Below are positions 19,971 through 23,080 of a DNA stretch of 23,080 nt, piece by piece. Positions within the stretch are counted from its first letter, which is position 1, and each line of letters begins with the position of its first letter. Made by a program: the position numbers and the translations under genes. Origin of the DNA: Promethearchaeia archaeon (GTDB lineage Archaea; Asgardarchaeota; Lokiarchaeia; Sigyniarchaeales; SOKP01); NCBI GenBank assembly GCA_046497275.1, contig JAWOFX010000108.1, positions 1-23,080 on the forward strand, in the 5' to 3' direction. The notes below the pieces were generated by a model, which was given only the letters and a program-made list of their open reading frames with translations, had not been told where the DNA came from and searched no databases.

Positions 19971-20576
19971 TTAATTGATTAGATTATCCCAAGATTCAAT
20001 TTCGAGAGTTTTTACTTCCTTTCCAATAAGTTCAGATATACGATTTATCTTATTTAAAGTTAATTTATCAGCAATAGCATTTTTTTCATGTAAAAAAAAG
20101 AGATCTTTTTCAATCCAATTTTCATTCTCTAATTCTTCCCTTAATCTCTTACATTTTTGTTCAATACCTTTTAATGCGTGAATAGGTATGTTTGGATTTA
20201 CTTTTTTATAATCTTCTAGAAAAAACGGTCCTCCAGATACAATTATATTTCGTGGGTCAGCACCTAAATCTTTAAGTACTTTTTTAGCAGAATTTGATGT
20301 TACTAATATATAATTTCCCTCGGAAAAGACATTTATTATTTTATCCTTTTTTTCTTGGAAAGATTCCTCTTTATCTATTAAAATTTGTTTCTTTAAATAA
20401 TTAGAAAAAATCGGGTTGAGCTTATCGTATATATTCTTTAATAAGGAAAGAAATTGATCCTTAGTTCGATCATCTAAGTCGTAATCTGGGGTCGTCTCCC
20501 TAATAATTAGTTTGATATCAATTAAACGGTCAATTGTTTTTAATAAGTTATCAACATAATCTTTTTTGATCTTCAT
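19971..20576 (-). CDS. Conserved archaeal hypothetical protein, DUF2100-like
   Basis: LGADPRNIIVSGGP..EDYKKVNPNIP..ALKGIE resembles the DUF2100 family as recalled from methanogens; not verified by search. Confidence 0.55.
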   Translation of the reverse strand: MKIKKDYVDNLLKTIDRLIDIKLIIRETTPDYDLDDRTKDQFLSLLKNIYDKLNPIFSNYLKKQILIDKEESFQEKKDKIINVFSEGNYILVTSNSAKKVLKDLGADPRNIIVSGGPFFLEDYKKVNPNIPIHALKGIEQKCKRLREELENENWIEKDLFFLHEKNAIADKLTLNKINRISELIGKEVKTLEIESWDNLIN

Positions 20577-21535: not shown

Positions 21536-23080
21536 TTATAATTTCGACCCACATTTATTGCAAAATGCATATTCTGAAGACAACCTTGCGCCACAATTTG
21601 AGCACGTGACCATTTTTGGTGCCTCCTCTTCTATTGCTTTGCTTGCTGAGGTTTCTTTAGTCATCTCTACGAAATCATTTGCTTCTTCCTCGATAGTTTC
21701 CGCATTAGGTATTATTCTTAATCCAGAATGTACTTCTTTAGATTCTTCGGATTGAGATGTTTTTGCTGAAGTTGAAAAGGGAATAAATGCTGGTTGGCTC
21801 CTCTCTTCTGATTTTGGACTCTTTCCTGAGAGTGAATCTAATAATGAAGGAACTTTTGGTTGTGATTCGAGTTCTTCTTCGGGTTTCTCAACTTCCTTTT
21901 TCTTTCTTCTTGAGAACAATCCAAAACCTTTTTTGGACTCTTTAATCTCAGGTTCTTTAGGCATATAATCGAAAAGAGATTCGGTTGATTTCGACTCGGG
22001 TTGAGATGACGCTGGTGGTGGGGATGCTTTAAATTTTTCTGGTCCTTCTGTTGGTGTTGGTGCTCTTGATGAGAATGGTATGCTTTTTGGCTTATAGGAT
22101 TCTGTAGCAGATTGTTTTGGCATTTGAGGAAGTGAAGATAATTCTGCAGCTTCTTGTTGAATATCATTATCTTCTGCCATAATTTGTTCAGGGGTTTTAA
22201 ACTCAAATTCGCTTGATTTTTCTGTTGGTTCAAATGAAGGCTCGGGAACCGGGATATCTGGTTCCACTTCTTGTTCGTTTGGTTCAAAGAAAATAGGCTC
22301 GGAAGCTTGGGATCTGGTTTCAGGGACTTCAGATTGAGATTGAGGGGGTTCTGCTTGTTCATATTGGTCTTCTGGCTCGAAAACTACGGACTCTGAAGCT
22401 TGGGACTCAGGGCGAGAGACTTCAGGCTGAGATTGAGGGGGTTCTGCTTGTTCATATTGCCCTTGAGGCTCAAAAAATACGGGCTCAGAAGCTTGGGATG
22501 GTTCTGGTTGTTGAACTTGGGGTTCTGGTTCTTGATATTGTGGTTCTGGCTCCGGTTCGGGGGGGGCTACATACTCAGGTTGAGTTGCAGTAGGTTGTTC
22601 CGGTATACTTGGTTCTTCATATTCCGTTACACTTGCCTCTTCAGGTGGAATTAGCGTTTCTTGTTGTGGAATTACTGGAATTTTGCCCGGAGAATAAATT
22701 GCATCTCCAAGTAATGTACCAGGAACTCCTTCCCCAATCATTAAGCAAGCTAACACAGAGAAACAATCTCCAACGTTATCACCTGTTTTTGCCGAAGTTT
22801 CCATGTAATACAAGTTGAAATCCCTCGTAAAATCATTGATCTCCTCTAAGGATATTGCTCTTTGATTTAATAAATCACTTTTATTTCCCACTAAGAGGAG
22901 CGGAATATCGGTTTGAACATTTGCACGTACTTCTTCGATCCATTGAGGTAAATGCTCAAAACTTGAAATAGAGGTCAAATCAAAAATGAGAAGTGCCCCT
23001 AACGCACCTCGATAATACATCGGACGAATTGAGCTGAAACGTTCTTGACCTCCTGTGTCCCATATTTGAAGTTTTGCCCT
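21536..23080 (-). CDS. Rab-like small GTPase with long acidic/Pro-rich tail and C-terminal zinc ribbon; 5' end truncated by window edge
   Basis: The frame stays open upstream of the ORF-track ATG to the window end and reads RAKLQIWDTGGQERFSSIRP-MYYRGA (G3, RabF2-4). LIFDLT, G4 GNKSD, G5 ETSAK follow. G1/G2 lie outside the window. The protein ends CSNC-x10-CNKCGSKL. Confidence 0.92.
   Translation of the reverse strand, partial: RAKLQIWDTGGQERFSSIRPMYYRGALGALLIFDLTSISSFEHLPQWIEEVRANVQTDIPLLLVGNKSDLLNQRAISLEEINDFTRDFNLYYMETSAKTGDNVGDCFSVLACLMIGEGVPGTLLGDAIYSPGKIPVIPQQETLIPPEEASVTEYEEPSIPEQPTATQPEYVAPPEPEPEPQYQEPEPQVQQPEPSQASEPVFFEPQGQYEQAEPPQSQPEVSRPESQASESVVFEPEDQYEQAEPPQSQSEVPETRSQASEPIFFEPNEQEVEPDIPVPEPSFEPTEKSSEFEFKTPEQIMAEDNDIQQEAAELSSLPQMPKQSATESYKPKSIPFSSRAPTPTEGPEKFKASPPPASSQPESKSTESLFDYMPKEPEIKESKKGFGLFSRRKKKEVEKPEEELESQPKVPSLLDSLSGKSPKSEERSQPAFIPFSTSAKTSQSEESKEVHSGLRIIPNAETIEEEANDFVEMTKETSASKAIEEEAPKMVTCSNCGARLSSEYAFCNKCGSKL
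22281..22498 (-). repeat. In-frame 93-bp (31-aa) tandem repeat, ~2.3 copies
   Basis: GAAGCTTGGGA at 22302, 22395 and 22488 (period 93). A 32-nt block is identical at 22335-22366 and 22428-22459. Units SQASEPVFFEPQGQYEQAEPPQSQPEVSRPE / SQASESVVFEPEDQYEQAEPPQSQSEVPETR / SQASEPIFFEP. Confidence 0.93.

Follow-up and report, generated by a model that had tools for sequence, protein, structure and literature searches.

One defining feature of eukaryotic Rab GTPases is a prenylatable C-terminus, which follows the G domain after a tail of 30-40 residues. Archaeal Rab-like proteins have been described as having no C-terminal cysteines, shorter C-termini, no region beyond the G domain, and neither a polybasic region nor a membrane signal (Surkont and Pereira-Leal 2016, PMC4915359), and the Thor and MK-D1 Rabs as having no C-terminal extension (Tran et al. 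2024, PMC10933270). Here we analyze a gene of a Promethearchaeia archaeon whose product joins a Rab-like G domain to a tail of about 370 residues and ends in a predicted zinc ribbon. The gene lies at the end of contig JAWOFX010000108.1 (contig C32 of our set), which was analyzed in its entirety (23,080 bases, G+C content of about 31%) and is referred to as the window. The source assembly spans 3.85 Mb in 188 contigs and is 98.9% complete. A preliminary description of this DNA had proposed a GTPase with a long tail and a terminal ribbon. This layout was borne out, and we add that the gene is encoded on the minus strand and is truncated by the end of the contig.

A Rab-like G domain without a prenylatable end

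The open frame of the tailed GTPase comprises 514 codons, from position 23080 down to 21539, followed by the stop codon at 21536-21538. It runs off the contig end, and about 59 N-terminal codons, including those of the P-loop, switch I and the IGVDF motif, are absent. In the alignment with P0002, the closest full-length relative (535 residues, 82% identical), the window copy begins at residue 60. This agrees with the Pfam Ras match (PF00071, residues 2-111, E 3e-35), which is confined to positions 48-157 of the 162 positions of the profile. The missing 5' part was not found on other contigs: a tblastn search of all 188 contigs with the first 62 residues of P0002 returned only paralogs of at most 60% identity. 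A 13-residue match near the end of contig C56 was considered as the missing end and rejected, as it reads inward and is a chance match. The complete protein would have about 573 residues, more than the 535 of P0002 because the window copy carries one extra 31-residue repeat unit.

The part of the G domain that lies within the window contains the G3 (DxxGQ), G4 (NKxD) and G5 (SAK) motifs of the Ras superfamily, as DTGGQ (residues 8-12), NKSD (residues 66-69) and SAK (residues 96-98). The G1 P-loop GxxxxGK[ST] and the switch I threonine lie beyond the contig end and are present in 115 of the 120 best homologs and in the same-genus ortholog. Judged from the orthologs and from the part present in the window, the G domain is predicted to be catalytically complete. 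The RabF motifs, which were reportedly defined by Pereira-Leal and Seabra in 2000, are also recognizable. KLQIW (RabF2, residues 3-7) and YYRGA (RabF4, residues 22-26) are exact; RFSSIR (residues 14-19) and LIFDLT (residues 31-36) fit at 4 of 6 positions and were taken as near matches to RabF3 and RabF5, and the RabF1 motif IGVDF is exact in orthologs. The four motifs listed in the preliminary description are thus all found, within residues 3-36.

The best-matching solved relatives of an ortholog are Rab30 (E 1e-47), Rab8A, Rab43, Rab1A/B and Ypt31/32, with E values from 1e-47 to 1e-40 and scores from 166 to 141 bits, and the Thorarchaeota Rab 7EZB falls within the same range (148 bits, PDB search). 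These nearest relatives agree with the Rab-like G domain that had been proposed; NCBIfam returned only the generic small_GTP domain. The resemblance to eukaryotic Rabs extends over the whole G domain, which aligns end to end, and includes the catalytic glutamine of DTGGQ in addition to the exact or near RabF motifs. In contrast, the C-terminus is not of the prenylatable CC, CXC or CaaX type, since the protein ends in CNKCGSKL and its last cysteine, at position -5, is part of the ribbon. Due to the absence of this defining feature we file the protein as Rab-like and not as a Rab. We regard it as a small GTPase of the Rab-like kind whose C-terminal architecture is new; its kinship to Rabs rests on PDB similarity ranks and motifs. 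The G domain changes slowly: around 80% of its columns are at least 90% conserved in the alignment of 115 full-length homologs, and in the G-domain tree, branches within the family measure 0.02-0.07 substitutions per site. This points to a strongly constrained protein.

When compared to the published archaeal Rab-likes (7EZB of Tran et al. and the Lokiarchaeum Rab-likes of Surkont and Pereira-Leal), the tailed family has the same kind of G domain and belongs to the same orthogroup as short Asgard Rab-likes of about 180 residues, but it bears an extension of 300-460 residues with a basic cluster and a ribbon. For one Lokiarchaeial Rab-like ortholog, the family is a clear counter-example to the generalizations of PMC4915359 and PMC10933270. 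No description of this architecture was found in the literature that we searched, a search that left most subscription journals outside.

Distribution and origin of the tailed form

Overall, we found 493 homologs, and the 120 best of them are 472-665 residues long. In a sample of 300 Asgard species genomes, the GTDB family of the window has a full-length tailed frame in 63 of its 68 genomes, and the sister family of the same order in all seven. The survey of orthologs, which had been suggested as a check on the preliminary description, therefore returned a tail and a ribbon that are retained across the order. The window protein displays all the characters of its family, namely an orthologous G domain, a tail longer than 290 residues with LRIIPN and YKPK, a terminal ribbon and an adjoining double-ribbon gene. 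The sister family includes a 4.36-Mb single-contig genome (G210), whose ortholog has 593 residues, a tail rich in S, K, N and P with many NPF/xPF motifs, and the same ribbon. The sister family keeps the layout and exchanges the motif set for NPF/xPF.

Since the gene reaches the end of the contig and lacks its 5' part, the architecture could in principle be an artifact, arising from chimeric assembly or from a gene call that fused a small GTPase to an unrelated low-complexity open reading frame (ORF). This explanation is effectively refuted, because the same uninterrupted architecture is present in dozens of independent assemblies, on contigs of hundreds of kilobases to several megabases. The stop or misassembly between G domain and tail that the preliminary description had reckoned with was seen in none of the orthologs within the order.

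Outside these two families the tailed form was not recovered. A third family of the class contributes one genome in which the protein has 321 residues, a helical extension and a ribbon of another kind. In nine other Asgard families the best matches either have about 175-240 residues or are extended by unrelated, ribbon-less sequence (345 and 690 residues). In the maximum-likelihood tree of the G domain, tailed and short Asgard forms constitute one clade (support 98/98), which excludes all 21 own-genome paralogs that were included, and the tailed proteins are a subclade within this orthogroup (support 97/86). The position of the tailed subclade among short pan-Asgard orthologs shows that tail and ribbon were added within Lokiarchaeia. 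They are thus a Lokiarchaeial addition to a pan-Asgard Rab-like orthogroup and not an ancestral pre-eukaryotic state. The idea of a pre-eukaryotic solution to GTPase localization, put forward in the preliminary description, is weakened, as the tailed clade sits inside an orthogroup with members of about 175-240 residues in nine other families.

Several individual members deserve mention. The two extended forms from other families are L019 (G052:C110) and L020 (G041:C7), of which one has 345 residues, with an acidic tail rich in PEP and a small helical part at the C-terminus, and the other has 690. Some genomes of genus g5 have an extra tail-less copy of about 185-196 residues with a near-identical G domain (L025, G104:C14, and L026, G121:C28), and in one such copy the frame ends shortly after the tail has begun. 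Orthologs of genus g2 (G008, G168 and G243, and also G189; L128:236-310, L129:239-313 and L130:237-311) bear an insert of about 31 bases directly after YKMTIGV. The insert holds a short inverted repeat and shifts the frame, coding resumes at FHVKTI, and the ortholog of G183, from the same genus, is uninterrupted. The submitter labels of several members (Heimdall-, Hod-, Hermod-, Odin- and Thorarchaeota) disagree with their GTDB placement in the window's family. A contig labeled 'Hodarchaeota' belongs to a genome that GTDB puts in this family, and L112 (JBHLJY010000013.1) is among the mislabeled members. A match labeled Heimdallarchaeota (L076, BPTO01000344.1) is a contig of 2,147 bases and may be mis-binned. 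These deviating labels do not contradict the restriction to Lokiarchaeia.

The terminal ribbon and the conserved motifs of the tail

The last 22 residues of the window protein (residues 493-514) match the Pfam family Zn_Ribbon_1 (PF13240) with 27.2 bits, above the gathering cut-off of 25. They read CSNC-x10-CNKC followed by GSKL, so that the second of the two CxxC knuckles ends four residues from the stop. This terminal element is a predicted zinc ribbon. The same ribbon is found in all 120 best homologs, at 4, 5 or 8 residues from the C-terminus, and its non-cysteine positions are also nearly invariant in the family alignment. The terminal cysteines belong to a CxxC-x10-CxxC ribbon in place of a prenylation site, as the preliminary description had it. 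The source organism also encodes a Ras-like paralog of 203 residues (contig C156, about 79937-80416, minus strand), which has no long tail and ends directly in CxxC-x10-CxxC. Terminal ribbons therefore recur on the small GTPases of this organism.

Searched alone against the PDB, the ribbon retrieved only generic ribbons at chance level (bL32, RPA12 and Rpb12, E 0.03-1.3), and an assignment to the NZF/RanBP2-type or any other specific finger was without support in this search. A basic tract beside a ribbon is a common nucleic-acid-binding arrangement. The tailed proteins have such a tract, information-processing genes occur in the genomic surroundings, and the weak best matches of the ribbon are those just named, none of them significant. 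Ribbon and basic cluster might then bind RNA or DNA and place the GTPase on ribosomes or chromatin. We consider this quite unlikely, since the PDB matches are at chance level, the surroundings are a broad synteny block and not an operon, and the Rab-like G domain together with proline-rich or NPF-type motifs points to protein docking.

Between G domain and ribbon lie 372 residues rich in E (18.5%), P (15.3%), S (12.6%) and Q (8.3%), with a net charge of -45. We modeled the ortholog P0002 with AlphaFold2, using an alignment of 75 sequences. In this model the G domain is folded, the predicted local distance difference test score (pLDDT) stays below 50 across most of residues 205-510 and exceeds 90 in the ribbon, and the tail has a single helix (residues 318-334, pLDDT of about 68). 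No amphipathic or transmembrane helix was predicted in P0002. Structure prediction thus returned the disordered tail and the folded ribbon that had been anticipated. A search of 1.84 billion representative proteins with just the tail as query returned only members of the family, fragments of them truncated at the 5' end, and generic proteins with several ribbons, which aligned via the ribbon. A search of the ESM Atlas with the tail gave no usable feature matches, and structure TM scores were at most 0.18.

The tail is not uniformly variable. Short islands with 70-100% column conservation stand amid otherwise unalignable sequence and define around ten short motifs in the family, including the APPVPEP type, EPEIPIPEP, EFEFKTPEEILAE, YKPKxxPF, SLxDYMPEP, PSLFQxLxQK, FVPF and LRIIPN. 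PPxPEP occurs 1.99 times per tail and 0.02 times in shuffled tails, and LR[IV]IP 0.97 and 0.00 times, respectively. The proline motifs bear a resemblance to SH3, WW, UEV, MIM2 or profilin ligands; we considered these readings and do not claim any of them. The unit consisting of an aromatic residue, any residue and APPVPEP usually has two copies; there are four in the same-genus ortholog and four in another genus, with a range of 2-5 between genera. The window copy further contains a 93-bp tandem repeat, whose units bear (V/I)FFEP. A third, more diverged unit lies directly downstream, to about position 22277, and P0002 has one FFEP unit fewer than the window copy. A varying APPVPEP copy number and a repeat that multiplies FFEP are typical of multivalent motifs. 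The long flexible linker of the preliminary description is therefore retained in part: the region is predicted to be disordered, but with its ten or so conserved motifs and a basic cluster it is not a plain linker.

Another possibility is that the tail acts within the molecule, its motifs or the ribbon folding back to autoinhibit the G domain and the rest being mainly an entropic spacer. G domain and ribbon are each nearly invariant and are always found together, and the tail-less duplicates of one genus indicate that the G domain can stand alone. We regard autoinhibition as rather improbable all the same. The AlphaFold2 model contains no confident docking of any tail segment, with pLDDT below 50 save for one helix, and around ten separate conserved motifs exceed what a single autoinhibitory contact needs.

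A basic cluster also recurs in the tail. A 20-residue window with a net charge of at least +6 is present in 109 of 111 family tails, and its position varies: it is often 60-110 residues from the C-terminus and in two lineages directly precedes the ribbon. Its sequence is KKGFGLFSRRKKK in the window's subclade and a K/E tract in most other members. A cluster of this kind near a C-terminal cysteine element recalls the polybasic hypervariable regions of K-Ras4B and Rho/Rac, where a polybasic tract is combined with a prenyl group. In the tailed family, however, the cysteines belong to a predicted zinc ribbon and not to a lipidation site, and the cluster is often distant from the end. Cluster and ribbon could still anchor the protein directly, by binding anionic archaeal lipids in substitution for the polybasic-plus-prenyl signal; replacement of the lipid anchor was the main idea of the preliminary description. 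The near-universal cluster, its basic-hydrophobic character in the window's subclade, its place directly before the ribbon in two lineages and the non-prenylatable C-terminus all favor such an anchor. We nevertheless judge it unlikely, because the tail as a whole is strongly acidic, the alternating K/E tracts of most members look like a charged helix rather than a lipid-binding patch, and two members have no cluster. In addition, the ribbon resembles generic ribbons only, none of them a known lipid binder, and no amphipathic or transmembrane helix is predicted.

The two-ribbon neighbor and a proposed mechanism

The gene convergent to the tailed GTPase encodes a protein of 250 residues with an N-terminal ribbon, a beta-sandwich of the Ig/FN3/CBM type (residues 54-138, pLDDT 87-93 with AlphaFold2), a proline-rich linker and a C-terminal ribbon. 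Both ribbons are of the CxxC-x10-CxxC form. At each of the 12 loci examined in the own family, this two-ribbon gene directly adjoins that of the GTPase. In three of five sister-family genomes it is located immediately upstream of the GTPase gene and on the same strand, despite different surrounding synteny. Its range matches that of the tailed GTPase, with presence in 59 of 68 genomes of the own family, 5 of 7 of the sister family and 3 of 225 from other families. The surroundings contain genes for an RNA polymerase B subunit, a TruB/dyskerin-type pseudouridine synthase (which we take to be Cbf5-like), NAC and a proteasome-type AAA ATPase. Adjacency in the own family weighs less because of this housekeeping synteny block, and the arrangement in the sister family carries most weight. 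The two-ribbon gene is the best lead to a partner, and a candidate only.

We tentatively propose, with a little less than even confidence, that the tail works as a multivalent docking tether for the GTP switch and is held at its far end by the ribbon. The G domain would read the nucleotide state and bind effectors as Rabs do, while the motifs of the tail would allow it to recruit several partners simultaneously. With the help of the basic cluster, the ribbon would attach the distal end to a cellular site, most likely a protein partner such as the two-ribbon neighbor. GTP-dependent events would in this way be kept within reach of that site without lipid modification. A more specific version appears improbable to us: ribbon and basic cluster would dock on the two-ribbon beta-sandwich protein as a lipid-independent localization system, and the tail motifs would assemble a docking network of the eukaryotic, multivalent style. 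As working analogies only, the endocytic adaptors epsin, Eps15 and AP180 share the multivalent short motifs in a long disordered region, and the EEA1 tether shares a GTPase-linked end and a zinc-module end with a long spacer in between. They differ from the tailed family, to which they are not homologous: here a single chain includes the GTPase, and the ribbon is no FYVE finger.

Several observations weigh against a switch coupled to a docking tether. None of the tail motifs could be matched to a binding partner. The beta-sandwich of the neighbor matches generic Ig/FN3/CBM folds only (VIA Z up to 10.3, with many at 8-9; best Foldseek E 0.004), and no adaptin-ear or other peptide-reading domain was among the top fold-search matches listed for it. 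The adjacency in the own family lies within a larger conserved synteny block of housekeeping genes, and in two genomes of the sister family the GTPase and two-ribbon genes are about 4 kb apart. Finally, the window copy is without its 5' end, so that we infer the integrity of the gene in the source organism.

Features of the window and implications

The positions of the tailed gene, its motifs and its neighbor are collected in Table 1. Two other genes of the window are worth recording. A DUF2100 protein (archaeal) is encoded at 19971-20576 on the minus strand, between a pyridoxal phosphate (PLP)-dependent decarboxylase and the two-ribbon gene, and occurs at this place only in some genera of the family. 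A second small GTPase of 337 residues is encoded at 137-1150 on the plus strand; its Ras domain spans residues 167-328, and the roughly 150 residues before it have no Pfam match at E 1e-4 or better.

Table 1. Features of the tailed GTPase gene and of its convergent neighbor, in window coordinates
Feature	Position	Strand	Basis
Tailed Rab-like GTPase gene, 3' 514 codons and stop	21536..23080	-	ORF, Pfam, homologs
G-domain fragment, residues 1-120	22721..23080	-	Pfam Ras E 3e-35; best PDB matches Rabs; conservation
Switch II DTGGQ	23045-23059	-	Sequence motif, includes catalytic Gln
G4 NKSD	22874-22885	-	Sequence motif
Disordered acidic, proline-rich tail, residues 121-492	21605..22720	-	Composition; pLDDT <50 over most of the P0002 equivalent
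93-bp tandem repeat, 31-residue units bearing (V/I)FFEP	22325..22498	-	Tandem Repeats Finder (TRF): period 93, 1.9 copies, 87% matches
Motif FEFKTPEQIMAE (family consensus EFEFKTPEEILAE)	22172..22207	-	Conservation; begins the sole predicted tail helix
Motif YKPKSIPF	22073..22096	-	Y.P[KR] pattern in 99% of tails; 1.06 per tail vs 0.10 shuffled
Motif SLFDYMPKEP	21950..21979	-	Conservation
Basic-hydrophobic cluster KKGFGLFSRRKKKE	21893..21934	-	Net-charge scan of family tails
Motif PSLLDSLSGK (family consensus PSLFQTLTQK)	21821..21850	-	Conservation
Motif AFIPFS (xPF type)	21773..21790	-	Conservation
Motif LRIIPN, nearly invariant	21704..21721	-	In 97% of tails; 0.00 expected when shuffled
Predicted C-terminal zinc ribbon, CxxC-x10-CxxC plus 4 residues	21539..21604	-	Pfam PF13240; 120/120 homologs; P0002 pLDDT >90
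Convergent neighbor, candidate partner, 250 residues	20759..21511	+	Pfam, AlphaFold2, fold searches, adjacency, co-occurrence

Because the tail occurs only in Lokiarchaeia, it is informative about how archaeal GTPases are localized and says little on the direct ancestry of eukaryotic Rab tails. The question that the tailed family addresses is how Asgard small GTPases are positioned without prenylation. Almost all sampled genomes of one Lokiarchaeial order encode the family, which offers concrete handles on this question, in the form of a defined ribbon, a basic cluster, around ten short motifs and one linked gene for a candidate partner.

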